The notes below the pieces were generated by a model. The model was not told the origin of the DNA and made no database searches. It was given only the letters and a program-made list of their open reading frames with translations. Source: an uncultured Calditrichota bacterium (GTDB taxonomy: Bacteria; Calditrichota; Calditrichia; Calditrichales; CAYPHA01). From it: a stretch of DNA of 64,000 nucleotides. Shown one piece after another: positions 944 through 18,516 of the stretch (position 1 is its first letter; the number at the start of each line of letters is the position of its first letter). The stretch covers positions 138,924 to 202,923 of the forward strand of contig CAYPHA010000001.1 in assembly GCA_964410215.1 (NCBI GenBank). Direction: 5' to 3'. The translations under genes and the position numbers were made by a program.

Positions 944-958
944 TAAGGGAAACGGCAT

Positions 959-2050: not shown

Positions 2051-2068
2051 CGCGGTATTCCTATTGCG

Positions 2069-2917
2069 TTATCTTCTTTTTAACTTTTCCCAGTCTTCCG
2101 GACGCAACTGCTCCAGAAAATTGAACTCGCCTGCTCCGGCCAGCCATTCCCCGCCGTCGATGGTTATGACTTCTCCCGTGATGTAACCGGACTGTTCGGT
2201 TACCAGATAAACAGCCAGGTGGGCCAGCTCCTCGTGTTTACCAACTCGCTTCAACGGGATCCGGTTGACCATATGCTGTTCAAATTTCGGATCCGGCATC
2301 AACCGTTCCCAGGCCCCTTTTGTCGGGAAGGGACCGGGGGCAATGGCGTTTAAGCGGATCTTATATTTTCCCCATTCTGCGGCCAGTGAACGTGTCAGGT
2401 TCAGCACACCGGCTTTGCTGACGGAAGAAGGAACGACATAGCCCGAACCGGTCGAAGCATAGGTCGTAACGATACTGAGAACCGTTCCGGGTATTTTCTC
2501 ACGAATCCAGTATTTACCCATGGCCAGCGTGGCATAATAACTGCCTTTCAGAACGATCTCTACGATGGTATCAAAGGCCCGGTAGCTGAGCTGTTCCGTG
2601 GGTGAGATGAAATTTCCGGCGGCATTGTTCACCAGGATATCGATCTGTCCGAAACGGTCGCACCCGGCCTCTATGGTTTTTTCTATCTGCCGGTATTTCC
2701 GCACATCCAGTTCCAGAGGCAGAACAGGATTCCCGGTCTCTTTCTCGATCTCTGCTGCTGTTTCCTGCAGGATATCCCGTTTGCGGCTGGCTATAATGAG
2801 ATTCGCTCCGAGTCCGGAGAACATGGTGGACATGGATTTTCCCAGGCCGGTGCCCCCGCCGGTAACCAGGATGGTTTTGCCCTTCAGCAATTGTGTGTCA
2901 AATAAGGTGTTTTTCAT
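2069..2917 (-). CDS. SDR-family oxidoreductase (2,4-dienoyl-CoA reductase-like)
   Basis: VTGGGTGLGK Rossmann motif, NNAAGNF, active-site region SSVSKAG and PGPFPT. 282 aa. Confidence 0.85.
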   Translation of the reverse strand: MKNTLFDTQLLKGKTILVTGGGTGLGKSMSTMFSGLGANLIIASRKRDILQETAAEIEKETGNPVLPLELDVRKYRQIEKTIEAGCDRFGQIDILVNNAAGNFISPTEQLSYRAFDTIVEIVLKGSYYATLAMGKYWIREKIPGTVLSIVTTYASTGSGYVVPSSVSKAGVLNLTRSLAAEWGKYKIRLNAIAPGPFPTKGAWERLMPDPKFEQHMVNRIPLKRVGKHEELAHLAVYLVTEQSGYITGEVITIDGGEWLAGAGEFNFLEQLRPEDWEKLKRR

Positions 2918-2973
2918 AACAGCTTTCCAGCCAGTTTTTTGAATAAATATGATGGATTATAGAAATATAGATG

Positions 2974-3041
2974 AACCATAGAGGACAAAAAGTAAACACA
3001 TATCAATATAAAATAATTGTTAACTCTGTGTCCTCTGTGGT
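2974..3041. repeat. small element bounded by terminal inverted repeats, copy A (about 68 bp)
   Basis: AACCATAGAGGACA (2974-2987) pairs with TGTCCTCTGTGGT (3029-3041), 13-bp arms with 1 mismatch. The right end CTCTGTGTCCTCTGTGGT is the reverse complement of the left end of copy B at 45512, apart from 1 mismatch and 1 indel. Confidence 0.45.
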
Positions 3042-3064
3042 AGTTAATACCTTGTTCGAAGGAT

Positions 3065-4834
3065 CTATAATTCGACGATCAACACCTTTTTTTCGCCGTC
3101 GCGCATGACATCCACACTGATACGCTGACCTTTTTTGAACTCCTGCAAACGGTTCATATAATCATAGATGTTGTCGACCGGCTTGCCGTCCATGGCCACG
3201 ATGATATCGCCCTTTTCCATGCCCGCCATGGAGGCCGGGCGTCCGTCCATTACGACTTCCGCGCGTAAACCTTTGATGTCACTGGCGGCGATATCAGGCA
3301 TGATACCCAGGGTAACTTTAAATTTATATCGTCCGCCGGAGGGGCGTTCTTTGGGACCGGCTTCCCGGAAAGCAAAAGATCGCTCCCGGTTGGCGATGTC
3401 GAACACCATATCATAGACCAGGTCCGTGATGGCTTTTAACCCGTCAAATTCGATTTTATCCACATCATCCGCCGGTGTATGGTAAAATTCGGTGGTACCG
3501 GAGAAGAAAAACAGCACGGGAACATCTTTGGCATAAAAAGAGGAATGGTCCGACGGTCCGTATCCTTCTGTGGATTCCTTGATTTCGATACCGCGATCGG
3601 AAGCAAAATTCCTGACCATTTCACTCAATCCGTCACCGGTGCCCGTCCCGCCGATGGTAACGGCTTCATCTTCCCGGTTATATCCGCCGATCATGTCCAG
3701 GTTGATCATGAATGTGGCCTTTTTGAGGTCGGTGATGGCATGCTCGGCATAATATTTGGAACCGAGCAGGCCCATTTCTTCAGCACCAAAGGCGATAAAA
3801 AGAATACTGCGTTTTAACTGATCCTTATTTGCAGCTATTTTCTCCAGTATTTCAACAATAGCCGCTGTTCCGGAAGCATTATCATCGGCTCCGTTATGGA
3901 TAGCGCTTGTGTCCGGCCTGCGCGAACCGCTGCCCGGGCCACCCATGCCCAGATGATCATAGTGCGCGCCAATAATGACATATTCGTTTTTTAATAGAGG
4001 ATCTGAGCCCTCGAGATAGGCCACTACGTTCTGGGTCTTTACATGCTCACGGACAATTTCGGTTTGGGCTGTAATTTCCAGGGGGATCTCGAAACTATGA
4101 GGCGTCTTTCTATCGATTAACTCTGATTCCAGGCTGTCGATAACCTGGTTCGCAGGTTCCAATAACTGATCCGCAATAGACCGTTTTATGTGAAGCACCT
4201 GTAAACCGGCAGGGACACGGGCTTGGTCGATATTGATTTCCATCAGCTCATCGGTTTCATCAAATGTATTACCGGAAACAAAAAGCACCCCCGCGGCGCC
4301 GTGGTCCCGGGCGACCAGAACCTTTTTACGCAAGGATACATAAGGATCATAGGCAGAATCCTCACTATCCGGTCCACCGCGCAAGATCATGACATATTTA
4401 CCCGTAACGTCCACATCATCATAGTCGTTCCAGGAGAGGCTGTCGGTTTCAAAATCGAATCCATATCCGGCAAAAGCAACCGGTGCGGTGATCAGGGTAT
4501 CACGGGTAAAGGAAACCGGCAAAAAATCTTCTCCGGCTATGCCTTTCGATTTGCCAAAGGAAAGCGTATTATCCGGTCCGGCCTGTATAGCGACGAGTAC
4601 GTCGAAATACTGATACCCCTCATCGCCGAGCAGCCGGGCTCCGGTTTTTTTCAGTTGTCCGCGGATGTAGGCCGCCGCTTTCCTGCCGCCATCACTTCCG
4701 GGCTTGCGCCCCGCGAGTTCGTCAGACGCCAGATAGGAAATATGATCCTTGAGCTCTGGAATCGTGATGTCATCCTGGGCGACTACCAGTGAAGAAAGAA
4801 GCAGAAACGATACGAAAATAACGAGCCATTTCAT
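3065..4834 (-). CDS. secreted M28-family aminopeptidase with a PA-like insert and a C-terminal PDZ domain
   Basis: Signal peptide MKWLVIFVSFLLLSSLVVAQD. M28 metal-ligand blocks IIGAHYDHLG, GADDNASG, FGAEEMGLLGS, NLDMIG and SDHSSF. PDZ-like GMEKGDIIVAMDGKPV. ATG at 4834 has gaggg upstream; the track start at 4861 is a TTG. Confidence 0.85.
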   Translation of the reverse strand: MKWLVIFVSFLLLSSLVVAQDDITIPELKDHISYLASDELAGRKPGSDGGRKAAAYIRGQLKKTGARLLGDEGYQYFDVLVAIQAGPDNTLSFGKSKGIAGEDFLPVSFTRDTLITAPVAFAGYGFDFETDSLSWNDYDDVDVTGKYVMILRGGPDSEDSAYDPYVSLRKKVLVARDHGAAGVLFVSGNTFDETDELMEINIDQARVPAGLQVLHIKRSIADQLLEPANQVIDSLESELIDRKTPHSFEIPLEITAQTEIVREHVKTQNVVAYLEGSDPLLKNEYVIIGAHYDHLGMGGPGSGSRRPDTSAIHNGADDNASGTAAIVEILEKIAANKDQLKRSILFIAFGAEEMGLLGSKYYAEHAITDLKKATFMINLDMIGGYNREDEAVTIGGTGTGDGLSEMVRNFASDRGIEIKESTEGYGPSDHSSFYAKDVPVLFFFSGTTEFYHTPADDVDKIEFDGLKAITDLVYDMVFDIANRERSFAFREAGPKERPSGGRYKFKVTLGIMPDIAASDIKGLRAEVVMDGRPASMAGMEKGDIIVAMDGKPVDNIYDYMNRLQEFKKGQRISVDVMRDGEKKVLIVEL

Positions 4835-4909
4835 CAGGAAACCCTCATATAAGAATATCAAAATTCTTTAAAACACAGAAGGGAATTTAATAATTCCAAA
4901 CTGTTATTG

Positions 4910-7900
4910 CTAATGATATTCATCCCAGCTTTTAATCTGCAGGTCCTCCGGCTTTTTACGTGAAATCGCTTCCACAAGGCGCATGGCGATCTGACGGTTG
5001 GTGATCAGCATGACATTATAATCAACCGCCGCGCGACGGATCAGGTAACCGTTGGTCAACTCATCCTTCTGGTAATTTTTCGGGATGTTGATGACCAGGT
5101 CGATTTTCCCGTCCTTTATATAATCGATGACATTGGGCTGTTTTTCATCGAGCGGCCAGTGCAGCATTTTCGCCTTTATCTTATTCTGTTCAAGAAATTT
5201 GGCCGTTCCGCCGGTTGCGAACAGTTTGATGCCCATTCGCTGCAGCAGGGCGACGGACTCCAGCAGTTCCGCCTTCGATTCAATCGGACCGGTCGACAGC
5301 AGAATATTTTTAAACGGGAAACGGTACCCCACGGCGGCCAGGGATTTAAGGTAGGCTTCGTCGAAGTCGTCACCGATACAGGCCACTTCACCTGTGGAAG
5401 CCATTTCCACCCCGAGCGTCGGATCCGCTCCGGCCAGGCGCATAAAGGAAAACTGGGGCGCTTTCACCCCCACATAGTCCAGCTCGAATTGGGACCGGTC
5501 CGGCGTTTTGTAGGGGGCATCCATGATGATGCGTGTTGCCGTTTCGATGAAGTTGAGCTTTAGAATTTTGGAAATGAAGGGGAAACTACGCGACGCACGC
5601 AGGTTACATTCGATGACCTTGACTTCGTTTTGTTTGGCGATAAACTGGATATTGAAAGGTCCATTGATCTTCAGGGCCTCTGCGATCTTATTGGTGATCT
5701 GACGGATGCGGCGGATGGTTTCCAGGTAAACACGCTGCGGCGGAAAGACCAGGGTGGCGTCACCGGAATGGACGCCGGCATTTTCGACGTGTTCCGAGAT
5801 GGCATAGATTTCCACTTTACCGTCTTTGGCCACTGCATCGATCTCGATTTCCTTGGCATTTTCCAGAAATTTACTGATGACCGTCGGATGTACGGGTGAA
5901 ATGGTCACGGCTTTGTTCAGATACCGTTCCAGTTCTTCGTCATTGGAAGCAACGGCCATGGCCGCCCCGCTGAGCACATAGGAAGGTCGCACCAGTACCG
6001 GGTAACGCACCTCTCCGGCAAATTCCAGGGCATCCTGGATGGAGGTCAGCTCTTTCCAGACCGGCTGATCGATATCAAGTTTATCCAGCAATGATGAAAA
6101 CGTATGCCTGTTTTCGGCTTTATCGATGCTTTCCGCCGAAGTACCAAGTACCGGAACGCCGGCCTTGTGCAGGTCCAGGGCCAGGTTATTGGGGATCTGG
6201 CCGCCCACCGAGATAATCACGCCTTCCGGGCGCAGTTTCCTGTAGACTTCGATAACGCTTTCCAGGCTGATTTCATCGAAGATGAGTTTTTCGAACTGAT
6301 CATAATCTGTGCTGACGGTTTCGGGATTATAATTGAGCATGATGGTTTTCAACCCGATGTCTTTCAGGGTGAGACCGGCGTTGACGCAGCACCAGTCGAA
6401 TTCGACAGAGCTCCCGATACGGTATGCACCGGAACCCAGGATCATAACCGATTTTTCGGTATCCGGTTCCGCATCGTCTTCCATACCGTTATAGGTCATA
6501 TAAAGATAATTGGTATGTGCCGGATATTCCGCGGCCAGGGTGTCGATCTGACGGATAAACGGCTGGAGCCCGGCGGCGTGGCGGCAGTCGCGCACCTCCT
6601 TTTCGGTTTTTTGGGAGAGGATGGCAACCTGCCGGTCTGAAAAGCCGGCCTGTTTTGCTTTCAGCAAAAGAGCTCTGGGAATTTGTTGATCATTAAACAG
6701 GGAAATCTGGTCGGCAATTTCGGCAACACGCTGCAACTTGAACAGGAACCACTTATCGATATGGGAGAGGCTGTACACTTCATCGACCGTGAATCCCTGC
6801 TGGAAGGCGGTAACGATGCCGAAGATGCGTTCCTCGGTCGGCGCTTTGAGTTCATCGGTCAGGTCATCGAACTGAAAGGTGGAATTGGCGACGAGGCCGT
6901 TGGCGCCGATTTCCAGCATGCGCAGGCCCTTCTGAAGGGCTTCTTCGAAATGGCGTCCGATAGCCATGATTTCACCGACGGATTTCATACCCGAACCGAT
7001 TTTCCGCGAAACAAGGCGGAATTTCTTCAGGTCCCACCGGGGTATCTTTACCACCACATAATCAAGGGCTGGTTCGAAAAAGGCCGAGGTGGATTTAGTG
7101 ATCGCGTTGCGCAGCTCAGGCAGGGTAAAGCCGAGTGAAAGCTTAGCAGCGACAAATGCCAGGGGATAACCGGTGGCTTTGGATGCCAGCGCCGAACTTC
7201 TTGACAAGCGCGCGTTCACTTCAATAACACGATAATCCTCGGAGCGCGGATCAAGGGCGTACTGGATATTGCACTCGCCGATAATACCCAGGTGACGAAT
7301 CACCTTGATGGCCACATCGCGCAGTTTCTGGTATTCGCGGTTGGTAAGCGTCTGGCTGGGTGCCACAACGATACTTTCTCCGGTATGGATGCCCATGGGA
7401 TCGAAATTTTCCATGTTGCAGACGGTGATGCAGTTGTCAGCCCGGTCACGGACGACTTCGTATTCGATTTCTTTCCAGCCGGACAGGTATTCTTCTATCA
7501 GGATCTGCGGTGTATGGGAGAGCGCTTTCCTGCTCAGTTCCAGCAGTTCCGCCTCATCGGCGCAGACGCCGGAACCCAGGCCACCCAGTGCATAGGCGAT
7601 CCGGACCATGACGGGATAGCCGATATCCTGTGCAACTTTTGTGGCCTCATCAGGGGTGGTGGCAATGCCGCTGCGGCAGGTCAGTACGCCGATTTCGTTC
7701 AGCCGGTCCACGAAACGCTGCCGGTCTTCCGTATCCATGATGGCCTGTACATTCGTGCCGAGCACCTGAACATTGTGTTTTTTAAGAATGCCTTTATGAA
7801 ACAGGTCCAGACCCGCATTCAGGGCCGTCTGGCCTCCGAAGCTGAGCAGAATTCCCTGCGGCTTTTCTTTTTCTATCACTTTCTCGATATACTCGGTGGT

Positions 7901-8101
7901 GACGGGCAGAAAATAGACTTTATCGGCCAGGTGGTCCGAGGTTTGAATGGTAGCGATATTGGGATTAATCAGAACGGTATAGACTTTTTCTTCCTTAAGC
8001 GCCTTGATGGCCTGGCTGCCGGAGTAGTCGAATTCGCCGGCTTCACCGATTTTCAATGCCGCGCTTCCCAGCACGAGTACTTTTTTAACTTTTTTAGCCA
8101 T
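4910..8101 (-). CDS. carB: carbamoyl-phosphate synthase large subunit
   Basis: 1063 aa. N-terminus KKVLVLGSAALKIGEAGEFDYSGSQA, duplicated ATP-grasp halves and an MGS-like C-terminus. The start overlaps the carA stop by 1 nt (TAATG). Confidence 0.97.
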   Translation of the reverse strand: MAKKVKKVLVLGSAALKIGEAGEFDYSGSQAIKALKEEKVYTVLINPNIATIQTSDHLADKVYFLPVTTEYIEKVIEKEKPQGILLSFGGQTALNAGLDLFHKGILKKHNVQVLGTNVQAIMDTEDRQRFVDRLNEIGVLTCRSGIATTPDEATKVAQDIGYPVMVRIAYALGGLGSGVCADEAELLELSRKALSHTPQILIEEYLSGWKEIEYEVVRDRADNCITVCNMENFDPMGIHTGESIVVAPSQTLTNREYQKLRDVAIKVIRHLGIIGECNIQYALDPRSEDYRVIEVNARLSRSSALASKATGYPLAFVAAKLSLGFTLPELRNAITKSTSAFFEPALDYVVVKIPRWDLKKFRLVSRKIGSGMKSVGEIMAIGRHFEEALQKGLRMLEIGANGLVANSTFQFDDLTDELKAPTEERIFGIVTAFQQGFTVDEVYSLSHIDKWFLFKLQRVAEIADQISLFNDQQIPRALLLKAKQAGFSDRQVAILSQKTEKEVRDCRHAAGLQPFIRQIDTLAAEYPAHTNYLYMTYNGMEDDAEPDTEKSVMILGSGAYRIGSSVEFDWCCVNAGLTLKDIGLKTIMLNYNPETVSTDYDQFEKLIFDEISLESVIEVYRKLRPEGVIISVGGQIPNNLALDLHKAGVPVLGTSAESIDKAENRHTFSSLLDKLDIDQPVWKELTSIQDALEFAGEVRYPVLVRPSYVLSGAAMAVASNDEELERYLNKAVTISPVHPTVISKFLENAKEIEIDAVAKDGKVEIYAISEHVENAGVHSGDATLVFPPQRVYLETIRRIRQITNKIAEALKINGPFNIQFIAKQNEVKVIECNLRASRSFPFISKILKLNFIETATRIIMDAPYKTPDRSQFELDYVGVKAPQFSFMRLAGADPTLGVEMASTGEVACIGDDFDEAYLKSLAAVGYRFPFKNILLSTGPIESKAELLESVALLQRMGIKLFATGGTAKFLEQNKIKAKMLHWPLDEKQPNVIDYIKDGKIDLVINIPKNYQKDELTNGYLIRRAAVDYNVMLITNRQIAMRLVEAISRKKPEDLQIKSWDEYH

Positions 8102-9174
8102 TAAGCAAGCCTCCCGATAAATTCATCAAACAAAAACGCAGTGTCATTCGGGCCGGGTGCCGCTTCCGGATGAAACTGCACGCTGGAAAACAGGCCCGAT
8201 GCATGCATGAGTCCCTCGCTGGTCTCATCGTTCAGGTTGATGAACGAGGGTTTCCATTTCGCCGGCAGATCCGTGGTGTCCGTCACATAACCATGATTCT
8301 GGGAAGTGATATAGCATTTAGACGTCTCGAGATGCATGACCGGCTGGTTCTGGCTGCGGTGGCCGTATTTCATTTTAAACGTATCCAGCCCGATGGCCAG
8401 CGACAGGATCTGGTGTCCCAGGCAGATGCCGAAAGTCGGGACGCCGTTGTTAATCAGTCCCTGTACCTGTTCTATGGTTTCCTTACAGGTTTTGGGGTCC
8501 CCGGGACCGTTGGATATCAATACCCCATCTACTTTTTCGTCGAGAGCCGGGTAATTCCAGGGTACCATCAGTACCTCGACGTTACGGTTGATCAATTCTT
8601 TGACGATGCTGCGTTTACCGCCACAATCAATGACCATGATCCGTTTCCCGCCTTTGCCGAAACGCTGCGGTTTATCGATACTGGCCCGGGCGACCAGGTT
8701 GTGCTGCTGGGGATCGAACAGGGGGACGTCTTTGTCATCCAGGATGATCTTTCCCAGCATGGTGCCTTTTTCGCGCAGCCGTTTGGTCAGGGCCCGGGTA
8801 TCGATGCCGGCGATAGCCGGGATTTTCTGGTTATACAACCACTGGGCCAGGCTGGTATCCGCATTCCAGTGATGATACTGATGGGAATAGTCAGAAACGA
8901 CCAGACCGCTGACCTGACCGGATTCCGCCTCATAAAAGGCCGGAAGGCCTTTTATCATCTTCTGGTGATCGGGCATACCGTAATTGCCGATCAGAGGATA
9001 GGTCAGGGTAAGGATCTGACCTTTATACGACGGATCGGTGAGTGACTCCGGATATCCGACCATCCCGGTACAGAAAACCACTTCCCCCGAAACCGATTCC
9101 TGGAATCCGAAGGAAGTCCCTTCGAAGACCGAATCGTCCTCCAGTATGAGTTTTGCACTTTTTTCTTCGATCAT
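8101..9174 (-). CDS. carA: carbamoyl-phosphate synthase small (glutaminase) subunit
   Basis: 357 aa. Class I GATase triad context FGICLGHQIL and VQFHPEAAPGP. SD agggag lies before the ATG. Confidence 0.97.
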   Translation of the reverse strand: MIEEKSAKLILEDDSVFEGTSFGFQESVSGEVVFCTGMVGYPESLTDPSYKGQILTLTYPLIGNYGMPDHQKMIKGLPAFYEAESGQVSGLVVSDYSHQYHHWNADTSLAQWLYNQKIPAIAGIDTRALTKRLREKGTMLGKIILDDKDVPLFDPQQHNLVARASIDKPQRFGKGGKRIMVIDCGGKRSIVKELINRNVEVLMVPWNYPALDEKVDGVLISNGPGDPKTCKETIEQVQGLINNGVPTFGICLGHQILSLAIGLDTFKMKYGHRSQNQPVMHLETSKCYITSQNHGYVTDTTDLPAKWKPSFINLNDETSEGLMHASGLFSSVQFHPEAAPGPNDTAFLFDEFIGRLA

Positions 9175-9216
9175 AAGCTCCCTGCAATTTATTAATGTTT
9201 CTTACTTTTATATTCT

Positions 9217-12200
9217 TTATCCGTTTTCTCCACAAATCCGGGCCATCTGTGTCGTGTAGAAACGAATCAGGTTTTGTTCTGATTCAGAGAAGGCCTGTTC
9301 CTCAATTTTTACGATCTGTTCGACATCCCGCAGGGCCCGGATGATATCGATGGGTACTTCCGACATGGAGCGGGGTACCTGGGTCAGATACTGAACCGCG
9401 GCGATCAGGAACTGGCGCATGGAGTCATCGACAATTCCGCGCAGCAGATCGGCCACCTGGCTGCCCAGCCGGAAGACCTTGGTGGTATCGGCCGGAAAGG
9501 GGAGATCGGTCTGTCCCATACCCGATGACAGGGCATGAATGGCGCCGGCCAGTTCGACAAAACTTTTAACCTGTTGAAAGACACTGTTTTCGATCACTTC
9601 CCAAAGTTGACTTCTCAGTGCCCGGACGTTTTCTGGTATAACAAGCAGGCGACTGACTTCCTCTTTCCATTTTGGATCCACCGGTCCGTCGATCAAACGG
9701 AAAAGCGTTTGCGGATCGGAGTTAAACAAATCTTTCTGCACCAGCACGGCAATCTCCGGATCGAGCGTCGGCAGCAGGGCCGGATTGAATGTGCCGTTCT
9801 CGAAGAAAACACTCGGCTCGATACCGAATCTGCGAATCAGTTCCCGTTGAAAATAGGGTATGAAACCGGTTATGGCATCCGTATCTTCGCGCAGGACGGC
9901 GAAACAGGAATTACCGGGCGGGAAAGCCCTTTCCATACGTTTCAGGTAGGTCTGCTCCCGGTCATGATACAGGCGCAGGCTGTGCAGGATTTCACGCACG
10001 TGCAGGTGAGGCAGTATGCGGTCATTGATCAATGAAACACTGTCACTGTAGCTGGACTGCCGATTGGAAAATTCGTCTATCGCCCGGAACAATCCGGTCG
10101 TAAGCTGGTTGATGCCCAGGATCATTGTCTGTGCGCGGTTATGACCGATGGCACGCAGCAGGCTTCCGTGTGCCGCCATGGGTAGTGTCTGGGCGATACG
10201 GGCGATAATCTTCTGTCCGCGTTGCTCGCTGACATCGCGGCTGGGGCGTACCGTCGGCCGGTCGCGTAATGCCGGCATAGCCCGGGAAATGAAATAGGAA
10301 ATGGCATGGATGCCTACCACATCCGCATCCTGCCCGTAAAGGATCTGGCGAAAATTCTTGGTCACCAGTTCTGAAAATTCATTGTAAAGCGGATCCCGTT
10401 TTCCGGTCGTTCGCAGCTCCAGCTCCTGGTAACCGCGCTCCTGGAAAATCAGGCGGGTATCCAGCAGCGGCTCGCTGGCCCTGACCAGCTCATTATCGTG
10501 AAAGATCTGTGCCGCATGCAGATGATACAGCAGCTGGGCCAGTTCATTTACGGGCAGATGGCGTAACCGCTCAAATATCGTGCTCTGGAAGGTCCGCAGG
10601 TCTCCGGTAGAGAGAATACCCATCAGCGGAATACGGGCATATTCCGCACTTTTCTGAATAGAGGGTTTGATAGTTTGAAAGCGTGTTTTGTTTTCCGTGT
10701 TGAACCGGAACGGCTCTTTTCCGGAGAGGGCGTCGTAATAGCCACCCTGTCGCTGCATCGGTTCACCACTGCCCAGTTTCATGCGGACCTTCTCAACCAG
10801 TCCGCGCTCGGCCAGCCAGCGCACGGCTTTATGCTTTGCTTCCCGGTATAATACGGCTCCACGGGCCTGTCCCACCTGCTGACTGATATCGGAACCGGCG
10901 ATAAACAGTTCACAGATCATATCGGAAAAACGGTCGGCCGCGGCCTGATCGACGCGGCGGCTGCGAATGGCATAGTTCCAGATGCGGTCGAGGTAAGTGG
11001 TAAGCGACTCGATTGTCTCCGTGTCTTCAAACAGGGGTATCAGCCAGATGTTGGGCAGCTCAGTATCCGGGTTTTCGCGTTTCAGCATTTCGTTTCGGGC
11101 CCGCATCTTCGAATCCAGTGAAATCAGTGCTTCCGGTTCGGTGGACATACTCACCTGCAGGGCCAGCACCATTCCGGGGTTGCCGTATTCTGAGGCTATC
11201 TGGTTGATTTCAAACATGTTATGCACGGTCGTGTCGATGGCAAACGGATCTTCGGACAGGATCATTTTCTGGTGGATCCGCGGTGTCAGGATAAAACGTC
11301 TGAGCAGGCTGCGATAGGTACCTGCTTTCAAAGCCACTTCCGGATGCGAAAGCAACCGTTCTATTTCCGGCAGCCGGCTGTGTAAAAACTTGCGCAGTCT
11401 TTTATTCAGGGCAAAATAGTATTCCATAGACTGACGGCGTTCACGACGCAGTTCGAACATGCGTTTTTCCAGGCGGTCGTTATGCTGCCAGAGAGCCGTC
11501 AGCGGATCACGCGCCAACCGCAGTTTTGAAGCAAGGGCATCCAAACGGCCCGAAGGCGCCTGAAAGGGCAGCACACTGCGGTATCGCTTCTCGAGCTGGT
11601 TGGTCAGCGAGGTGATTTTATTGGACAGATTCCAGAAGCCGGCTTTCTGGGCATCCAGCCGCTCGATTTCGCGCCGGAGATCGGCGGGGATAACCAGATC
11701 GCGGTTGTATTTCATCAGAGTGCGGATGATTTCCGCCAGCAGTGATACATTTTTCAACAGTGCTGCGGCTACCAGGCGGTGCCCCTGCCCGGAGGGACGG
11801 GTGCTGCCATCCCAGTCACCCCAGAAAGACAGAAAAGCCGGCTGGTTGAACCGGCCGTTCCAGCGGGCATATTCTTCCGCCCGGATCACGGCACCGAGAT
11901 CGGATACCAGCTCGTCCGCTTCTTCAATGGAATTTACGGCAATATTGGATCCGAGATATTCATGAACAAGGGACAGGGCCAGGCTTTGCGTTTCCTTTTC
12001 CGAAGCACGTCGTCCGAAAAATACCTGTTCCAGCAGGGTGTCGGTTTTCAGGTCGACATCCAGGGCATACATCTGGGTCGGGTGTACCGTCCGGTCAAAC
12101 AGTCTGCGCCGGAAGCGCTGTTGACGGTCCGCAGTATTTTCCTTGTAAAATTCCTGTTCAAGGATGCCCGTGATTCCGGATGGCGATGATACCGATTGTT

Positions 12201-12246
12201 CGAGTATATTTTTATAAAGGTGTACCTGATCCTCATATCTTTGCTG
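9217..12246 (-). other. module 3 of the giant ORF (about aa 860-1868): divergent PEP-carboxylase-like region
   Basis: Blocks are collinear with E. coli Ppc as recalled from memory:
- TVHPTQ (His914, 12082-12084) vs TAHPTE.
- SFWGDWDGSTRP (11791-11829) vs SWMGGDRDGNP.
- VSMSTEPEAL (11125-11160) vs ISMAKTPSDVL.
- IPLFEDTETI (11014-11046) vs APLFETLDDL.
- FIAGSDISQQ (10867-10920) vs MIGYSDSAKD.
- LGSGEPMQRQGG (10741-10782) vs FHGRGGSIGRGG.
- C-terminus ARICGENG vs AGMRNTG.
The GYSDS-to-GRGG spacing is 41 residues in both proteins. Confidence 0.6.
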
Positions 12247-14823
12247 TAACAGGGCCATCTTTTCCGGGAGAAAGTTCGTCAGAAAATGCTCTGTGCGCGC
12301 ATCCCAGCGGATGAGCGATGAAAAGCGCCTGAATTCATCTTTAAAAAGCATTTGCGCGGCCCGGGAAATCCGCCCGGTGGCATCCGTCCAGAGGGCTTCA
12401 CCGGTACCAAGATAGGGCGCGGCTTTCAACCGAAGGGAATGCACCGGAAAACGGTGCCGGTTATAGCGTACCTGCTCATCGGCAATCAGACGGTTCATGT
12501 CGATAAGTACACGACGGGTTTTGGCTTTCAGCTGTTCGGCGGCGTCTTTACCTCCAAGGGTCATCCGGAAGGTTTTCCGGGCCAGCTCGAATCCTTCCGC
12601 CGTGCGGGCAAAGGTGGAAAGGGGTACCAGTCCGATACCGCGCTTGGCCAGATTGGAAGCCAGCCAGTCAAGAGAAATGCCGGGAGGCAGATCGTGAATA
12701 ACCAGTTGGGGATACATACTGCCCGAAGGCCGTTGTATTTCAATGCGAAAACTGTTGCGCTCCCCGGGAAGGTTATAACAGGCTTCCTCGATGGCGGTCA
12801 TCCGTTCATTCAGCAGTGTATTCCTGAGGTACCAGAAAGCCCGCACCTGTTCCGGTTCATTGCGATAGAGCAGATAGGCCATGAAGATGGCCATACTGTT
12901 GGGCCGGACGGTCTCCATACAGGCTGCAAATTTTTGATGCAACCCGGGATCCGGAATTTCGGCAACGGCCAGGCGTCCGCCGGCAAAACAGTCCGTCTTG
13001 GAAAGGGAATGAATAGTAATCAGGAAACGCTTCTGTGATTCCCTGATATAGCCCATGCGGATGCGCTCATTGACCAGCTGTTTCAGCGTGGGCAGGCTTT
13101 CCGTTTGTGCGGACGGCCGGAGATTCTGATAGGAAAGGTCATCGATTACAAAAATATCCCGGTTCAGCAGCCGGGTTAACAGGCCTTTCAGGGCCTCTTC
13201 ATCAAAAACACGACCACTGGCATTATGCGGTGAGTTCAGGACAACGGCACCCCTTTGTTTCCATCCGGGATCTTTTTCCATAAGCCGGTCAAGCCGGGCC
13301 ATAAGACCCTCCGTGTCAATACCCAGGTTTGCATTAAGCGAAACGGTGTGCACGTCTGGGAAGCAATGCTCATAGGTCCAGCTCAGATCCGGGATGATCA
13401 CCGATTCGATACCGCAGTGAAAGCCGAGAAAGCTCATAGCCGTACGTGCCGAACCGCTGACGACAAACGTATCCCTGTCGGAATAATAGGGATGATGATG
13501 CAGAAAGCGCTGCAGGAAATTGGATGCGAGTTCGGACTCTATTTCCGGATCATAAAGCTCTGTAAATACGGTTTCAAATAATTCCCTGGGGGTACGCGCA
13601 GAAAAGGTATCCGCGACCGACGTGGGGATGTGCGGATGTGCATGCATGCGATCCTGGTACGCTTCGGAGTGGGTGGTGTAGGTTTCAGCCATACGTTCCA
13701 CGGAGGTACTGTGAAGCCTGTAAGCCTGCATCATGCGGTCGGTTATGCGGTTAAGAAATGCAGGTGGTTCCGGCAGTGTTTTATTCTCAAATGCAAGTAC
13801 CGGTTTATCGCTACTATCCGCCGGATCAGGATTTCCGGGTTCTTCGGCCTGCGTATGTACCATCCGGTGAGCGAGGTATTTGACTTCTGCGGCCGACGGG
13901 GTTCCCTTGAGCTCAAAATGGACCAGTTCCAGAATTTTAAGTAGTTCCGAATTTCCCAGGACAAATATGATGGAACTGTTCTTCAGGGCGGGATTCATAA
14001 AAGCCGGTGTCATAAAACGGGTTACCCGGTTAAGCATTTTCGCTTCCCGGGCCAGGGAAAGGTGATTCGGGGCATCATTGGTTTCAATAAAGTACAGGGG
14101 GTGCTCCAGGCTGATCATACGCAGCGTCCGCCTTGCTGTCTCAGATAGCGTTCTGCCGATGATCATGTAATTCGGACGCGGGGGAGTCGATTTAAAATAG
14201 TGTTGCAGGGTAACGATAGCCCCTTCTTCATCATCCGGCAAAGCGGTAAAGTCCAGGTTTTCAAAATCATACAAATGGCCCGGCAAATCAAATCCGCACG
14301 TAAAAACGGTAACCGGTGTTTGGTTCGAGAAGCGGCTAATGGCTGTCAGAAATACCCGGACCGTTTCATAGATACCGCCTGCACTGATAATGCATTCACG
14401 TTTACCGCTTTCTTCCCCAAAGTCGTAATGAAGCGGATCTCTGGAGATGGTATTCAGAAAGTCTTTAAACAGTAATGCGAGCGTGCCCGGTTTCTCACGG
14501 GTGTAGCCGCCTCTGGGCAGGTAGGGCACGCACTTGGCGATGGTATCGTAAAAGAAGGACATGTAATCCGGGGTATCCGCCAGCTCTTCCGATGTAGAAC
14601 CGGACTGCGAAGAATGGTCCGGGGCTGGCGTGTCCATCCCTGTCGTGAGTCGAAAATAAGCCTTGTGTAAACGGGAATCCTGTATCGGGTTGCCGATATG
14701 AAAATTTATCCGTTCATTTTCGGGAACCGGCGCAGCAGCGGTTGCCTCGCTGATTTCTGAGACTTTTGCCGCCTTTACCGGCCGTAACTGGAAATATTCA
14801 AGTGGATCCTTGGCACTGTTCAT
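9217..14823 (-). CDS. 1,868-aa multidomain protein: degenerate PLP-fold module, class I/II aminotransferase module and PEP-carboxylase-like module
   Basis: Single uninterrupted ORF, 25 nt after the SPFH gene and 42 nt before carA. Domain evidence is given in the three sub-features below. Confidence 0.9.
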   Translation of the reverse strand: MNSAKDPLEYFQLRPVKAAKVSEISEATAAAPVPENERINFHIGNPIQDSRLHKAYFRLTTGMDTPAPDHSSQSGSTSEELADTPDYMSFFYDTIAKCVPYLPRGGYTREKPGTLALLFKDFLNTISRDPLHYDFGEESGKRECIISAGGIYETVRVFLTAISRFSNQTPVTVFTCGFDLPGHLYDFENLDFTALPDDEEGAIVTLQHYFKSTPPRPNYMIIGRTLSETARRTLRMISLEHPLYFIETNDAPNHLSLAREAKMLNRVTRFMTPAFMNPALKNSSIIFVLGNSELLKILELVHFELKGTPSAAEVKYLAHRMVHTQAEEPGNPDPADSSDKPVLAFENKTLPEPPAFLNRITDRMMQAYRLHSTSVERMAETYTTHSEAYQDRMHAHPHIPTSVADTFSARTPRELFETVFTELYDPEIESELASNFLQRFLHHHPYYSDRDTFVVSGSARTAMSFLGFHCGIESVIIPDLSWTYEHCFPDVHTVSLNANLGIDTEGLMARLDRLMEKDPGWKQRGAVVLNSPHNASGRVFDEEALKGLLTRLLNRDIFVIDDLSYQNLRPSAQTESLPTLKQLVNERIRMGYIRESQKRFLITIHSLSKTDCFAGGRLAVAEIPDPGLHQKFAACMETVRPNSMAIFMAYLLYRNEPEQVRAFWYLRNTLLNERMTAIEEACYNLPGERNSFRIEIQRPSGSMYPQLVIHDLPPGISLDWLASNLAKRGIGLVPLSTFARTAEGFELARKTFRMTLGGKDAAEQLKAKTRRVLIDMNRLIADEQVRYNRHRFPVHSLRLKAAPYLGTGEALWTDATGRISRAAQMLFKDEFRRFSSLIRWDARTEHFLTNFLPEKMALLQQRYEDQVHLYKNILEQSVSSPSGITGILEQEFYKENTADRQQRFRRRLFDRTVHPTQMYALDVDLKTDTLLEQVFFGRRASEKETQSLALSLVHEYLGSNIAVNSIEEADELVSDLGAVIRAEEYARWNGRFNQPAFLSFWGDWDGSTRPSGQGHRLVAAALLKNVSLLAEIIRTLMKYNRDLVIPADLRREIERLDAQKAGFWNLSNKITSLTNQLEKRYRSVLPFQAPSGRLDALASKLRLARDPLTALWQHNDRLEKRMFELRRERRQSMEYYFALNKRLRKFLHSRLPEIERLLSHPEVALKAGTYRSLLRRFILTPRIHQKMILSEDPFAIDTTVHNMFEINQIASEYGNPGMVLALQVSMSTEPEALISLDSKMRARNEMLKRENPDTELPNIWLIPLFEDTETIESLTTYLDRIWNYAIRSRRVDQAAADRFSDMICELFIAGSDISQQVGQARGAVLYREAKHKAVRWLAERGLVEKVRMKLGSGEPMQRQGGYYDALSGKEPFRFNTENKTRFQTIKPSIQKSAEYARIPLMGILSTGDLRTFQSTIFERLRHLPVNELAQLLYHLHAAQIFHDNELVRASEPLLDTRLIFQERGYQELELRTTGKRDPLYNEFSELVTKNFRQILYGQDADVVGIHAISYFISRAMPALRDRPTVRPSRDVSEQRGQKIIARIAQTLPMAAHGSLLRAIGHNRAQTMILGINQLTTGLFRAIDEFSNRQSSYSDSVSLINDRILPHLHVREILHSLRLYHDREQTYLKRMERAFPPGNSCFAVLREDTDAITGFIPYFQRELIRRFGIEPSVFFENGTFNPALLPTLDPEIAVLVQKDLFNSDPQTLFRLIDGPVDPKWKEEVSRLLVIPENVRALRSQLWEVIENSVFQQVKSFVELAGAIHALSSGMGQTDLPFPADTTKVFRLGSQVADLLRGIVDDSMRQFLIAAVQYLTQVPRSMSEVPIDIIRALRDVEQIVKIEEQAFSESEQNLIRFYTTQMARICGENG
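12454..13626 (-). other. module 2 of the giant ORF (about aa 400-790): class I/II aminotransferase with PLP-lysine motif
   Basis: VVLNSPHNASGRVF (NPxNPTG-like), FVIDDLSYQNL (DExY-like) and ITIHSLSKTDCFAGGRLAV (SxSK...GxR). The Lys609 codon is at 12997-12999. Boundaries are approximate. Confidence 0.7.
13834..14721 (-). other. module 1 of the giant ORF (about aa 35-330): aminotransferase-like fold without a recognisable PLP lysine
   Basis: INFHIGNPIQD resembles the aminotransferase N-terminal IxLxxGxP block. RECIISAGGIYETVRVFLTAI resembles the small-domain helix. No NPxNPTG or SxSK equivalents are visible. Boundaries are approximate. Confidence 0.35.
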
Positions 14824-14848
14824 TAAAGACTAACGGTTTCCCCTGATA

Positions 14849-15832
14849 CTATGTGTTGGATGTGTTCTTGTTTTCTTTTTTAACCGACTGCGCATCGAGA
14901 ATGTTCTGTAAAAACGCATGGATGGCAGACATGAACTGTGATCCCTGTGTGAAATCTCCCGGAGAGAGTGAAACAACGGTCCTGGCGTTCTTCAGATTCT
15001 GGCTGGCTTCTGCCAGTCGGGCAACCTGGGGAGTCAGGACAAGCAATTCGGGATTGTTTTTCAACAGCTCCAGTTCCTTGCGGTCAAATTCGAGTTGTTT
15101 ATTGCGCCGTTTCAATTCTTCCGTAATGCGTTTTTCGGCTATTTCGGCTTCGTTCTGTTCTGTAACTTTCTGCATTTCATATTTTTTCACTTCCAGGGCA
15201 TGTTCGGATTTGGAGACTTTTTCATCCGCGTCAATCTTTGCCTTCATGGCGGCAACACGCGCTTCCTGTTTAGTGACTTCCGTTTGTTCCAGGATGCGTG
15301 AAGCTTCCCGCTGCCGCATGGCCTCGGCGATTTCCACTGAAACAGGGTCTATGGCCTGAACCGTCAGCGTTACGATGTCAATACCAAGCGAATCCACGGT
15401 TTTGCCCAGTTTCTTATCGAGATGTGCGGACAGGGATTCCGATTTCAGTTCATCAATTTCATTTTTTTCGACGTATTCTTTAACCAGGGATTGCAGAAGA
15501 ACAATAACTTCCTGCAGGGCTTTGGAAACGCATTCATAGTTCCATCCTCCCACGCGGATGAGCGCGGAAAGATGATCGTTCGATGCGGCGACGGAAACGG
15601 CCAGGCGGACATTCACGGGCAGTTTACCGCTGGCTTCCGCCTCGATGTCAACAATTTTGGAATGAATGGTGCCCGGAATGGCCAGACTGAAATGCCTGGG
15701 ATAGAAACGGGCGCGGCGCAATCGTACTTTTCCGGCGGATTCGTAAAGAATCAGGTTATCGGGGCGGCGTATACGCAGTTCAAGAAGAACAAGGACGACG
15801 AGGATCACCAGGATGCCGACACTGACTAACAT
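14849..15832 (-). CDS. SPFH/band-7 (flotillin-like) membrane protein
   Basis: N-terminal TM MLVSVGILVILVVLVLL, an SPFH core (IDIEAEASGKLPVNVRLAVSV..., GIDIVTLTVQAIDP), then a long EA/K-rich coiled coil. ATG at 15832 follows a strong SD aggagg; the track start at 15859 is less likely. Confidence 0.85.
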   Translation of the reverse strand: MLVSVGILVILVVLVLLELRIRRPDNLILYESAGKVRLRRARFYPRHFSLAIPGTIHSKIVDIEAEASGKLPVNVRLAVSVAASNDHLSALIRVGGWNYECVSKALQEVIVLLQSLVKEYVEKNEIDELKSESLSAHLDKKLGKTVDSLGIDIVTLTVQAIDPVSVEIAEAMRQREASRILEQTEVTKQEARVAAMKAKIDADEKVSKSEHALEVKKYEMQKVTEQNEAEIAEKRITEELKRRNKQLEFDRKELELLKNNPELLVLTPQVARLAEASQNLKNARTVVSLSPGDFTQGSQFMSAIHAFLQNILDAQSVKKENKNTSNT

Positions 15833-15964
15833 ATTTCCTCCTGCGAAGATAGCTGGCATGTATACAAAAAATGCCTACAAGGATGTTGTAGACATTTCCG
15901 GCATAAAATTGTATGTATATTAATTTTGGTGAAAATTTATTAAAAAATAGCAGGTAAATGCAAA

Positions 15965-17239
15965 TTAATTTCCCATGGCATTAATCACATTTGCCGGAGG
16001 AATATCAGCATCGAAATGTGCATTGATGGTTGCTATCCATTCATTGGCGATCAATGCATTGCCGGCATCGGTCGCATGCAGACCGTCGAGACTGAAAAAC
16101 CCGCCTGTAATGAAGGCTCCGTCAAAAGAATGCCCGGTTATATCGATACCGGAGACATTCACACCGGCCATGAAATTATACATGTCAACAACGGGGATAT
16201 CACGGGCCCGGGCCTCATTTTCGATAATCGCATTAAAGGCGATCAATTGTGTATTCAGCACATCCTGTTCGTCCTGGTCCAGGTAAAAGACATCCGGCAG
16301 CGGATCGCCTTTGCCGCCGTTGGCTTCGGGTATACCTGTTCCGCGGGACAGTGTGTCGATCGCCGAAAACAGGACGAGGTCGTTTTCATCAACACCGACC
16401 AGGGGGATGCGTTCATCATTTTCATCCAGAACCGGTTCCAGTGTGGTGAAGTTGAACAGATAGGGTGGAATGGTGGTAAAATAGGCCACATTCCGGTAAC
16501 TGGCAAGGTTCGCCACGACGATTTCCGCACCGGTGGCTGAAAGGGAATCGAGCAGTTCTTTATACAGAAACTCAAAATCCGTTTCCGAAGTGAGCACTTC
16601 TTCGACCGTACCGCCCAGCAGGGCATAAGCCAGCAGGTCGCTGTTACCGATCCAGCAGGTGATAAATGTCGGATCCAGTTCGGCCACCTGTCCGACCAGC
16701 GTTTTTCTCGAACCTGCCGCTTTATCCCTGTTTCTCAGGATCAGATCTATGAACTGTGACTGGCTGAAACTTTCCTCTGTCGTGACGGACTCCAGCAGGT
16801 CGGCCAGCAGAACACCAGGCATGGACAGGTTGTGATAGGGATGCGGGAGATTTTTTATGTCATCCGAAATATACGGTGATGCGGAATCGAAAGAGCTGTA
16901 ATCCGAATAAAATGCCGGTACAAGAGCCAGCGGCAGCAGGGATTCCAGTTGCAGAATGCCGGCACCGATGGGTGTGTAAGAGCCGATCCCGGGGTAATCC
17001 AGCAGCGGTTGTGTGAAATCATCCACCCCGGCCTGCCGGGCTATCTGTGCCGGATAACTGAACTGCTGGTGCATTTCCGTCAGCGCTCCCGATTGAAAAC
17101 CGGAGGACAGGTTTCCGCCTACGGCGACATAGGTCGAAAAATCAGCGGAGCCGGTTGAAAATACCACCGGATCCGCATCGTCAAGCGTGCAACCGGCAAT
17201 CAGAAAAAATGAGAGTAGCAGTATCGTAATATGTTTCAT
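15965..17239 (-). CDS. SGNH/GDSL-fold lipoprotein (divergent block I)
   Basis: Lipobox FLIAGC. Block V DGLHATDAGNALIA and block III-like WIGNSDLL. The block I position reads GGNLSSGF rather than GDSLSxGF. Confidence 0.7.
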   Translation of the reverse strand: MKHITILLLSFFLIAGCTLDDADPVVFSTGSADFSTYVAVGGNLSSGFQSGALTEMHQQFSYPAQIARQAGVDDFTQPLLDYPGIGSYTPIGAGILQLESLLPLALVPAFYSDYSSFDSASPYISDDIKNLPHPYHNLSMPGVLLADLLESVTTEESFSQSQFIDLILRNRDKAAGSRKTLVGQVAELDPTFITCWIGNSDLLAYALLGGTVEEVLTSETDFEFLYKELLDSLSATGAEIVVANLASYRNVAYFTTIPPYLFNFTTLEPVLDENDERIPLVGVDENDLVLFSAIDTLSRGTGIPEANGGKGDPLPDVFYLDQDEQDVLNTQLIAFNAIIENEARARDIPVVDMYNFMAGVNVSGIDITGHSFDGAFITGGFFSLDGLHATDAGNALIANEWIATINAHFDADIPPANVINAMGN

Positions 17240-17259
17240 CAGTCATTCTCCAAACTTAT

Positions 17260-18516
17260 TTAAAACGTCCAGCCAATACTCAATGCGTACATATTTGCCA
17301 GACTGTTATAAACGCCGTTAAAATCCTCGACCGCGTCCGTGATTTCACGTTCTTCCTGACGAAGCAGCATGTAAGCACCATCGATCGTCACATCCAGGAA
17401 ATTTTCAAAGACAAAACGATAACCGAATCCAAGGGAATAAATATTGCGGTTACCCTCCGGTAAAGAAGGCTCTACATACTTATCGGGAACCGCCTGGTTA
17501 TCCCGGATATAACCACCGCGCAGGGCAATAGCATCGCTTAAACGGTATTCCAGTCCGACACGGATACTGTAACTGTCTTCGTAATTGCGCGGATTAACCT
17601 GCCTTGTTACACCGCCGGCAGCGTTTTCGAAATCAAGAACCATCTCATCATAACTGCTCCAGCCAATATGCAGATAGTCCACTTCTGCCGTCAGTTTTTC
17701 AAAAGGTGTATAAGCAATACCCGCTCCCATCATCACCGGGAGTTCCAGTTCCGATCTGACTTTCATCGGGGGATACAGAAATCGAATTTCACCATCTCCC
17801 TGAGAACTTCCGGTGCCTGGGAATTTGAAGTCAACATCGCCGTCTGTAAAATCAAGTTGTACATTACTCCTGTAGACAGCACCCAGCGAAAGCGAACGTA
17901 CCGGCTGAAGGCGGATACCCAGGTTGAATCCATAGGAATAGGTATTGGCACCGAGTGAGGACAAACCAAAAATATCATGCGGTGCGTAATATACATTTTT
18001 TTCAAGGGTCACGGAACCGTAAACCAGGTTAAAGCCTGCCGCGATTGAAATAAAATCCCATGGTTGATAAGAGAGGACCGGATTCAGATAGAAGGTTGTG
18101 ATATTTGAATACGTGGCCAGGGTGCGGCCGACCCATTCCTCGCCCCAGTTGGTTCCCAGTCCGAACAGGGAATAGAAGCCGAACCCGGCATGCAGTCCTT
18201 TTATCACGGGAAAGGTCAGATAAAATGTTGAAGGGGGAAACCAGTCGCTTTCCGTTTTATGAAACGCGTAGGGGTCGATACGTTCATCTGCCTGAAAGGA
18301 AGCACGCGGCATGATAAGTGTTGTACCGAAATAATAGTGGGTGCCGGACAACTGATTAATACCAGCCGGATTATAAAAGACAGCCGAAGCGTCATTTGCC
18401 TGGGCCATGAACGCACCTCCCATGGCGGTAGCCCTGGCGCCATGCTCATAGATCGAGAAACCTGAACCGTAAGCGATGGACAGGGGCAAAAGGAAGAAAA
18501 GAATCTTTTTCAGCAT
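17260..18516 (-). CDS. FadL/OmpP1/TodX-family outer-membrane hydrophobic-compound transporter
   Basis: Signal peptide, then GSGFSIYEHGARATAMGGAFMAQANDASAVFYNPAG (family N-terminal hatch motif). Beta-strand periodicity and a C-terminal aromatic residue (WTF). ATG at 18516 has gggaga upstream; the track start at 18534 is a TTG. Confidence 0.9.
   Translation of the reverse strand: MLKKILFFLLPLSIAYGSGFSIYEHGARATAMGGAFMAQANDASAVFYNPAGINQLSGTHYYFGTTLIMPRASFQADERIDPYAFHKTESDWFPPSTFYLTFPVIKGLHAGFGFYSLFGLGTNWGEEWVGRTLATYSNITTFYLNPVLSYQPWDFISIAAGFNLVYGSVTLEKNVYYAPHDIFGLSSLGANTYSYGFNLGIRLQPVRSLSLGAVYRSNVQLDFTDGDVDFKFPGTGSSQGDGEIRFLYPPMKVRSELELPVMMGAGIAYTPFEKLTAEVDYLHIGWSSYDEMVLDFENAAGGVTRQVNPRNYEDSYSIRVGLEYRLSDAIALRGGYIRDNQAVPDKYVEPSLPEGNRNIYSLGFGYRFVFENFLDVTIDGAYMLLRQEEREITDAVEDFNGVYNSLANMYALSIGWTF

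Follow-up and report, generated by a model that had tools for sequence, protein, structure and literature searches.

The DNA analyzed here, hereafter called the window, is a stretch of 64,000 nucleotides from contig CAYPHA010000001.1 of an uncultured Calditrichota bacterium. Four adjacent genes on its minus strand encode an SPFH-like membrane protein, a giant fusion protein of 1868 amino acids, and CarA and CarB, the two subunits of carbamoyl-phosphate synthase. The first-pass annotation had proposed that the four genes constitute one functional operon, in which pyrimidine synthesis would draw its aspartate from the fusion and its carbamoyl phosphate from CarAB. The interpretation favored here, with a probability of roughly 0.6, is a species-specific juxtaposition of carAB and a widespread cassette that consists of the SPFH gene and the giant gene. 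The anatomy of the encoded proteins and the SPFH-giant linkage, considered jointly, are held with high confidence. The giant protein comprises an N-terminal domain, an aminotransferase domain and a C-terminal domain that is predicted to adopt the fold of phosphoenolpyruvate carboxylase (PEPC). The relevant features are as follows (window coordinates, strand, description, basis).

4910..8101, minus: carB, carbamoyl-phosphate synthase large subunit (TIGR01369, 1496.9 bits against a cut-off of 1027)
8101..9174, minus: carA, carbamoyl-phosphate synthase small (glutaminase) subunit (TIGR01368, 435.8 bits against a cut-off of 307)
9217..14823, minus: giant gene, three-part fusion protein of 1868 amino acids (open reading frame plus homologues)
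13789..14823, minus: N-terminal domain of the giant protein, residues 1-345, alpha/beta with seven strands (AlphaFold2 model)
12454..13686, minus: class I/II (fold type I) aminotransferase domain, residues ~380-790 (Pfam, PDB profile, Foldseek)
9220..12426, minus: putative PEPC-like domain, residues ~800-1868 (AlphaFold2 model, Foldseek, motifs)
14849..15832, minus: SPFH (Band 7)-like membrane protein of 327 amino acids (Pfam Band_7)
15776..15829, minus: single N-terminal transmembrane helix of the SPFH protein, LVSVGILVILVVLVLLEL (Kyte-Doolittle)
15866..15899, minus: hairpin plus U-run, GGAAAUGUCUACAA-CAUCC-UUGUAGGCAUUUUUU (read in the sequence, intergenic fold)

With each GTDB species represented by one genome, a scan identified relatives of the giant protein in 328 species representatives. 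The synteny counts given here refer to the best 80 of these 328 loci, which are labeled Ignavibacteria/Melioribacter (30), Chloroflexota (18), 'Bacteroidota' (13), Calditrichota (8), Acidobacteriota (6), KSB1 (1), Kryptoniota (1) and unclassified (3), and whose neighboring genes were located by tblastn with the window proteins. Five of the 80 loci are truncated by a contig end and include no upstream DNA; in each of the remaining loci (75 of 75) the giant gene is immediately preceded by a co-directional SPFH-like gene. The gap between the two genes has a median of 24.5 nt, six pairs overlap, and the pairwise identities of the SPFH proteins correlate with those of the giant proteins (r = 0.94, 2080 pairs). 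The SPFH gene, initially regarded as unexpected at the head of a biosynthetic string, turns out to be the sole constant partner of the giant gene. Clustering of 1035 open reading frames (ORFs) from the 80 loci yielded no further neighbor family present in more than 7 of them. Among 73 loci, 37 have an opposite-strand gene next after the giant gene, and the Pfam families of the downstream genes are heterogeneous, none occurring in more than 4 of 61. The SPFH gene and the giant gene are strictly paired as a cassette of two genes in no fewer than five phyla.

The window carA and carB genes are canonical and score far above the cut-offs of the equivalog models, and tblastn placed them next to the giant gene in none of the 80 loci. 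The closest named relatives of carB belong to the Calditrichota (70-77% identity). The carA-carB pair is kept in the three nearest carB relatives (77-78% identity), in all of which the preceding gene is an unrelated one, encoding a DsbD-type protein, a protein with a type IX secretion system (T9SS) tail, or a sulfotransferase. The order SPFH-giant-carA-carB is repeated only in a second, independent assembly of the same species, where it can be followed past carA and 1.2 kb into carB. From the constancy of the SPFH-giant pair, the conservation of carAB without the giant gene and the repeat of the full order in the same species only, it follows that SPFH plus giant and carA plus carB are two independently conserved pairs, and that their adjacency is specific to this species. 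carAB is not part of the conserved unit, and the four-gene functional operon is not supported by synteny, the check that the first-pass annotation had itself proposed. Read-through from the cassette into carAB, and hence co-transcription of all four genes, is possible in this organism.

The second assembly also displays a break within carB. Between window positions 24708 and 6902 this same-species Logan contig matches the window at 95.7% identity, which falls to 66% over the remainder of carB (window ~5280-6902 against positions 17922-19562 of locus L082). At the protein level carA is 99% identical but carB only 71%. Either the assembly is chimeric at a conserved stretch or recombination has taken place within carB.

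The layout of the gene string was reproduced as first annotated, with four minus-strand ORFs at 4910-8101 (1063 amino acids), 8101-9174 (357), 9217-14823 (1868) and 14849-15859 (336), separated by a 1-nt overlap and gaps of 42 and 25 nt. The absence of a terminator within the string was also borne out, since a consensus scan found no terminator-like site in the three gaps; hairpin plus T-run matches occur only within ORFs, at chance level (25, compared with 18.9 ± 4.4 in shuffled sequences). The statement that each gene has its own Shine-Dalgarno site is correct for the SPFH gene, carA (AGGGAG) and carB (GGGAGG), whereas the site of the giant gene is weak, consisting of GGGG alone about 20 nt upstream of the start. 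Co-directional runs of four genes with short gaps are common among bacteria, and the gene layout by itself is therefore not beyond chance. The minus-strand run is longer than previously described, comprising eight consecutive genes (2069-18534): an ORF without annotation (2069-2917), an M28 peptidase with a PDZ domain, carB, carA, the giant gene, the SPFH gene, a GDSL lipase and a FadL-type porin. A GDSL lipase gene is also found upstream of the SPFH gene in a relative with 75% identity (locus L085).

One coordinate requires revision. The SPFH gene was first placed with its start at 15859, and ATG 15832, which yields a product of 327 amino acids, is most likely the true start. This codon is preceded 5 nt upstream by AGGAGG, whereas ATG 15859 has no Shine-Dalgarno site and lies 7 nt downstream of the hairpin plus U-run. 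The N-termini of the SPFH family begin 0-6 residues ahead of the membrane helix, and a 327-residue product is also found in gene calls from two independent contigs. The element at 15866-15899, with an A-tract, hairpin and U-run, separates the GDSL lipase gene from the SPFH gene, and the 132-nt intergenic region folds at -25.3 kcal/mol (z = -2.3). It is likely the terminator of the upstream FadL-GDSL unit, or a leader structure; an Rfam scan of window positions 1-20000 returned no riboswitch or leader.

The SPFH protein has a membrane helix at its N-terminus, then a divergent SPFH domain, a helical region rich in Glu, Lys and Ala, and a conserved C-terminal segment (residues ~255-300), NPELL..TPQ.ARLAEASQNLKNA, which is its best-conserved part. 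The window protein scores 25.0 bits with Band_7 (PF01145; cut-off 23.6), over profile positions 94-174 only. As 16 of 25 family members match Band_7, with a best E-value of 2.3e-9, the SPFH identity first proposed holds at the family level; judged by these profile matches, the assignment is marginal for the window protein alone and sound for the family. No match was obtained with NCBIfam, nor with the family profile against the PDB, and no NfeD-family gene is among the conserved neighbor families of the 80 loci. An N-terminal 18-mer with a Kyte-Doolittle mean above 2.0 is present in 25 of 25 family members and is followed by E-[YL]-R-x-R-[KR]-P-D (EYRxRKPD), a basic motif that is conserved. 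Because the positive charges come after the helix, the positive-inside rule would place the SPFH domain and the helical part on the cytoplasmic side, a compartment shared with the giant enzyme.

A total of 728 homologues of the giant protein were found, of which the best 120 are full length with 47-51% identity; all but two of these 120 are 1837-1904 residues long, and they bear only the name 'aminotransferase'. A single architecture is common to all full-length family members found. Residues ~380-790 are a class I aminotransferase with a complete set of pyridoxal phosphate (PLP) residues. Pfam Aminotran_1_2 (PF00155) matches this region with an E-value of 2e-9 (37.6 bits, cut-off 19.7), and the profile of the giant family matches the yeast aminotransferase Bna3 (3b46) in the PDB with an E-value of 1.8e-8. 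The AlphaFold2 model of residues 1-800 has a predicted local distance difference test (pLDDT) value of 86.8, and Foldseek aligned it over ~400 columns with class I aminotransferases (E 3e-15 to ~1e-15). The residues N534 (NxPHNAxG), D561 and Y565 (DDLSY), K609 (SLSKTD), R617 (eight positions after the lysine) and R753 (FRLTLGG) are invariant in 20 diverse family sequences; judged by these motifs, K609 is presumably the Schiff-base lysine, R617 the phosphate-binding arginine and R753 the carboxylate-binding arginine. NCBIfam gave weak aminotransferase matches to the giant protein and no other model. In four loci the next gene after the giant gene, in the same orientation, encodes an ordinary class I/II aminotransferase of 405 residues (L020 15747-16964, L022 9839-11056, L029 15808-17025 and L049 5725-6942).

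The N-terminal domain is modeled with pLDDT above 90 across residues 90-320, and it has no Pfam match even at E <= 10 and no PDB profile match. The first 45 residues of the giant protein are conserved. Because of the order of its secondary-structure elements only, the modeled domain is possibly a degenerate PLP-transferase-like domain that lacks the Schiff-base lysine. The idea of a duplicated aminotransferase was not upheld, as hhalign found no similarity between residues 1-345 and the aminotransferase half, and it stays an inference only.

The C-terminal domain was assigned by structure prediction. Its AlphaFold2 model (pLDDT 80.4, predicted template modeling score 0.82) gave 45 Foldseek matches in the PDB with E <= 1e-3, all of them PEPCs, with a probability of 1.00 and E-values of 1.7e-9 to 1.2e-6; the match that follows these 45 has an E-value of 0.03. 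The structures matched include the maize, E. coli, Arabidopsis, Flaveria and archaeal-type enzymes. Motifs that are invariant in the giant family are colinear with those of E. coli Ppc, paired as follows (E. coli Ppc; giant protein).

TAHPTE, 136; TVHPTQ, 912
GGDRDGNP, 250; WGDWDGS, 1001
PLFE, 503; PLFE, 1263
GYSDS, 540; AGSDxS (AGSDxSQQ), 1309
FHGRGGSIGRGG, 578; KxGSGEPMQRQGG, 1349
GSRPAKRRP, 697; LRDRPTVRP, 1519
LRAIPW, 712; LRAIGH, 1556
C-terminal NTG; C-terminal ENG

A profile of canonical PEPCs was built from 10 sequences of plasmid and chromid ppc genes. With this profile, hhalign aligned residues 1216-1361 of the giant protein with E. coli residues 466-590, a core that spans the ISMA, PLFE, GYSDS and GRGG motifs. 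Within it 10 of 23 PEPC-invariant positions are identical, including the metal ligands E506 and D543 as well as L504, S475, G580, G582 and R587. The hhalign counterparts of the metal ligands, E1266 and D1312, are both invariant in 20 family members, as are R1358 (for R587), H914 (for H138), R1522, R1526 and R1557 (for R699, R703 and R713) and G1868 (for G883). H914 and the three arginines R1522, R1526 and R1557 lie outside the statistically aligned core and are colinear positions matched by motif only. In E. coli Ppc we take E506 and D543 to bind the metal, H138 to be the catalytic histidine, R587 to belong to the loop, and R699 and R713 to bind phosphate. The model thus suggests that the C-terminal domain has the PEPC fold and that the core site for phosphoenolpyruvate (PEP) and metal looks intact. 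The guess in the first-pass annotation of an aspartate-forming, bicarbonate-using fusion was sustained at the level of the fold, as an aminotransferase joined to a PEPC-like domain.

Judged from the sequence searches, the PEPC-like domain appears to be an isolated lineage that occurs almost only within this fusion. A search with phmmer against 1.84 billion proteins returned 206 representatives, all family members or fragments. Among the cases checked, one apparently stand-alone PEPC-like protein was found (P0266), a 994-residue product encoded at positions 412-3396 of locus L099 (JGI 3300005077, contig Ga0071116_1001641), which is 41% identical to residues 912-1868 of the giant protein and is without the aminotransferase part. 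No SPFH gene is recognizable in the 411 nt upstream, where the contig begins. A second candidate, P0246, proved to be shortened by a contig end. The 904-residue ORF at window positions 55398-58112 was examined as a candidate for a canonical PEPC and encodes an S9 peptidase.

Several observations weigh against a carboxylase assignment and, more broadly, against the reading developed here. The Foldseek TM-scores are modest (0.35-0.41, and ~0.5 with the archaeal type) at 10-14% identity, and no sequence method reaches significance for PEPC: the best, the hhalign profile comparison, has an E-value of 0.012 and a probability of 3.5%, and hhalign with E. coli Ppc alone was not significant. The Pfam PEPcase model (PF00311) does not match the C-terminal domain even at E <= 10, the whole-family profile retrieved aminotransferases only and no PEPC from the PDB, and the phmmer search described above, made with the PEPC-like domain, found no canonical PEPC. 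Beyond the hhalign core, the residue map was drawn by matching motifs by eye. Residues invariant in PEPC are replaced at several positions (R253W, Y541G, K546Q, G583E, G588Q, P716G and W717H, with H579 variable); therefore the carboxylation chemistry is perhaps altered. PROSITE signature 2, M-x-G-Y-S-D-S-x-K-D-x-G, is broken in the family, which has F-I-A-G-S-D-x-S-Q-Q-V-G, and the glycine-rich lid GRGGxxGRGG is remodeled to G-S-G-E-P-M-Q-R-Q-G-G, with R587 retained. The substrate class of the aminotransferase is not assignable, the contact between the SPFH and giant proteins is putative, and the synteny was inspected in the 80 loci only.

A possible function can be outlined from these elements. 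The PEPC-like domain would bind PEP and a divalent metal and would carboxylate PEP with bicarbonate to give oxaloacetate; the PEPC catalytic histidine, the metal ligands, the phosphate and loop arginines and the C-terminal glycine all have counterparts in it. The fused aminotransferase would then convert the unstable 2-oxo acid directly into aspartate, with glutamate, for example, as the amino donor. Like SPFH proteins in general, the one encoded here is probably a membrane-attached oligomer, and it may hold or regulate the enzyme at the cytoplasmic face. The specific chemistry from PEP and bicarbonate through oxaloacetate to aspartate is a tentative proposal and somewhat doubtful. By analogy to HflK/C around FtsH, an SPFH ring or cage could dock or enclose oligomers of the giant enzyme, creating a membrane-bound metabolic microcompartment in which a fifth type of PEPC feeds an aminotransferase; this more elaborate scheme is unlikely as it stands.

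The alternatives differ in which of these elements they retain. Should the PEPC-like domain be catalytic without carboxylating, it might hydrolyze PEP to pyruvate or act on another enol-phosphate, and the final product would be alanine or another amino acid. The remodeled lid, which in PEPC shields carboxyphosphate, the replacement of K546, Y541, H579 and R253, and the extreme divergence, with no similarity at the level of hidden Markov models (HMMs), are all compatible with such altered chemistry; the invariance of the TAHPTE histidine, both metal ligands, the C-terminal glycine and the arginines of the loop and of phosphate binding is harder to reconcile with it, and we consider it an outside possibility of some substance. 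The aminotransferase fold might alternatively act as a ligand sensor that places the PEPC-like domain under allosteric control by an amino acid, comparable to the PTA domain of malic enzyme or to the aminotransferase fold of the MocR/GabR regulators. Canonical PEPCs are inhibited by aspartate, and the extra N-terminal domain bears no detectable catalytic signature. Inhibition by aspartate is likewise indicated for an archaeal-type PEPC by the title of a reference (bib43 in PMC8100219), and in malic enzyme a fused non-catalytic domain mediates allostery (PMC8100219). Against a sensor, K609, D561, Y565, N534, R617 and R753, all of which are needed for PLP catalysis, are invariant across the family, and a purely regulatory role is improbable.

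The remaining alternatives concern the genetic context. A single operon of the SPFH gene, the fusion, carA and carB, dedicated to pyrimidine synthesis, would account for the shared strand, the short gaps, the 1-nt overlap and the lack of a terminator in the gaps, and for the recurrence of the order in the independent same-species assembly; the domains of the fusion are compatible with aspartate formation. Such an operon is distinctly improbable given that carAB is adjacent in 0 of 80 loci, that an opposite-strand gene follows the giant gene in half of them and the downstream families are heterogeneous, and that unrelated genes precede carAB in its nearest relatives. Moreover, no pyrB is present among the annotated ORFs of the window, and carbamoyl phosphate feeds arginine synthesis too. 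The patchy spread across phyla, the variable neighborhoods and a Y1 transposase after the cassette in one locus would be expected of a mobile conflict or defense cassette, in which a membrane SPFH sensor is paired with a metabolite-depleting effector. This explanation is very hard to sustain: PADLOC returned no significant match, neither viral contigs nor plasmids yielded a copy, strong purifying selection extends over all 1870 residues (62% mean column identity), and a single architecture is kept in all full-length members. The reading of a conserved SPFH-giant cassette that lies beside carAB in this species is thus preferred.

The folds are already known, but the fusion architecture and the SPFH partnership are without description in the literature searched: full-text searches found no paper on an aminotransferase-PEPC fusion or an SPFH-aminotransferase pairing, and none on the PEPC content of Melioribacter, Ignavibacterium or Caldithrix. 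Only the aminotransferase stretch of the giant protein is covered by Pfam (2025) and, weakly, by NCBIfam (2026), and the current label 'aminotransferase' conceals ~60% of the protein. Four types of PEPC, all unfused, are recognized in a 2020 review of the PEP-pyruvate-oxaloacetate node (PMC8100219). The present family would add a further PEPC lineage, hidden from sequence profiles and fused to a complete aminotransferase, and, if the proposed chemistry is true, a naturally occurring pathway on a single polypeptide that leads from PEP to an amino acid. Little is understood of SPFH proteins, which are ubiquitous; the dedicated partners known for them are NfeD proteins and proteases of the FtsH type (PMC2636767). 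Pairing across phyla with a 210-kDa metabolic enzyme presents a new client relationship to test and, if the cage interpretation is true, would represent the first SPFH assembly for a biosynthetic enzyme instead of a protease or channel. The cassette is found in at least 328 species representatives, from mostly uncultured lineages that are abundant in the environment (Ignavibacteria, Calditrichota, Anaerolineae, Bryobacterales), and also in Melioribacter, namely in the genome record of Melioribacter sp. OK-6-Me and in a metagenome-assembled genome of M. roseus. M. roseus is a described, cultured species, and experiments may be feasible if its cultured strains carry the cassette.

Elsewhere in the window, a single plus-strand ORF (36629-38359) encodes a fusion of the PabB-PabC type, with one domain of a chorismate-binding enzyme and one of a class IV aminotransferase. 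A minus-strand ORF (33458-35548) encodes an amino-acid permease fused to EIIA-2 of the phosphotransferase system (PTS) and TrkA-C domains, which suggests a transporter with regulatory modules. The plus-strand ORF at 38379-40217 encodes a 612-residue protein of the choline/carnitine O-acyltransferase family (E 9e-38), a mostly eukaryotic family.

Among known systems, the predicted C-terminal domain most closely recalls the bacterial/plant-type PEPC (Ppc, EC 4.1.1.31; E. coli 1jqn/1fiy, maize 6v3o), with which it shares the overall fold (probability 1.00, E ~2e-9) and the order of the motifs TAHPTE (136), GGDRDGNP (250), ISMA (~473), PLFE (503), GYSDS (540), FHGRGGxxGRGG (578), GSRPxxRRP (697) and LRAIPW (712) and the C-terminal glycine. 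It differs from Ppc in its 10-14% identity, its lack of HMM-level similarity and the disruption of both PROSITE-type signatures (PS00781 and PS00393), through A137V and through Y541G and K546Q, as well as in its remodeled lid loop. About 140 additional residues follow LRAI in the giant protein, and its domain is fused behind ~790 residues of aminotransferase-type domains and encoded beside an SPFH gene. The archaeal-type PEPC (PepcA, 3odm) shares the fold and gives the best target-normalized TM-score, 0.49-0.52; it is a stand-alone protein of 55-60 kDa, whereas the giant's domain has ~1070 residues and is fused. The archaeal type is likewise too divergent for easy detection by sequence (PMC8100219).

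The aminotransferase domain shares the PLP lysine, the aspartate, asparagine, tyrosine and arginine, and the carboxylate-binding arginine with class I aminotransferases (aspartate aminotransferase subgroup I-gamma, kynurenine aminotransferase/Bna3, LysN and ACC synthase); unlike these, it lies between a 345-residue N-terminal domain and a PEPC-like domain. The SPFH-partner operons (stomatin/YbbK-NfeD, YqiK-YqiJ, FloA-NfeD, and HflKC with FtsH) similarly link a gene for a membrane-anchored SPFH protein tightly to a specific partner. A 2009 survey of prokaryotic SPFH operons described links with NfeD and FtsH only (PMC2636767). The trees of SPFH and NfeD partners correlate (PMC2636767), and the cassette resembles these operons as a probably co-transcribed pair whose partner trees correlate. 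It differs from the SPFH-NfeD operons (SPFH1/2/5 of PMC2636767) in having no NfeD among its conserved neighbors and a very divergent SPFH domain. Its partner is a giant soluble enzyme rather than NfeD or a protease.

In the C4 mesophyll, PEPC and then aspartate aminotransferase, which are separate enzymes, convert PEP and bicarbonate through oxaloacetate to aspartate. The order of reactions proposed for the giant protein is the same, and here both putative activities would reside on one bacterial polypeptide.

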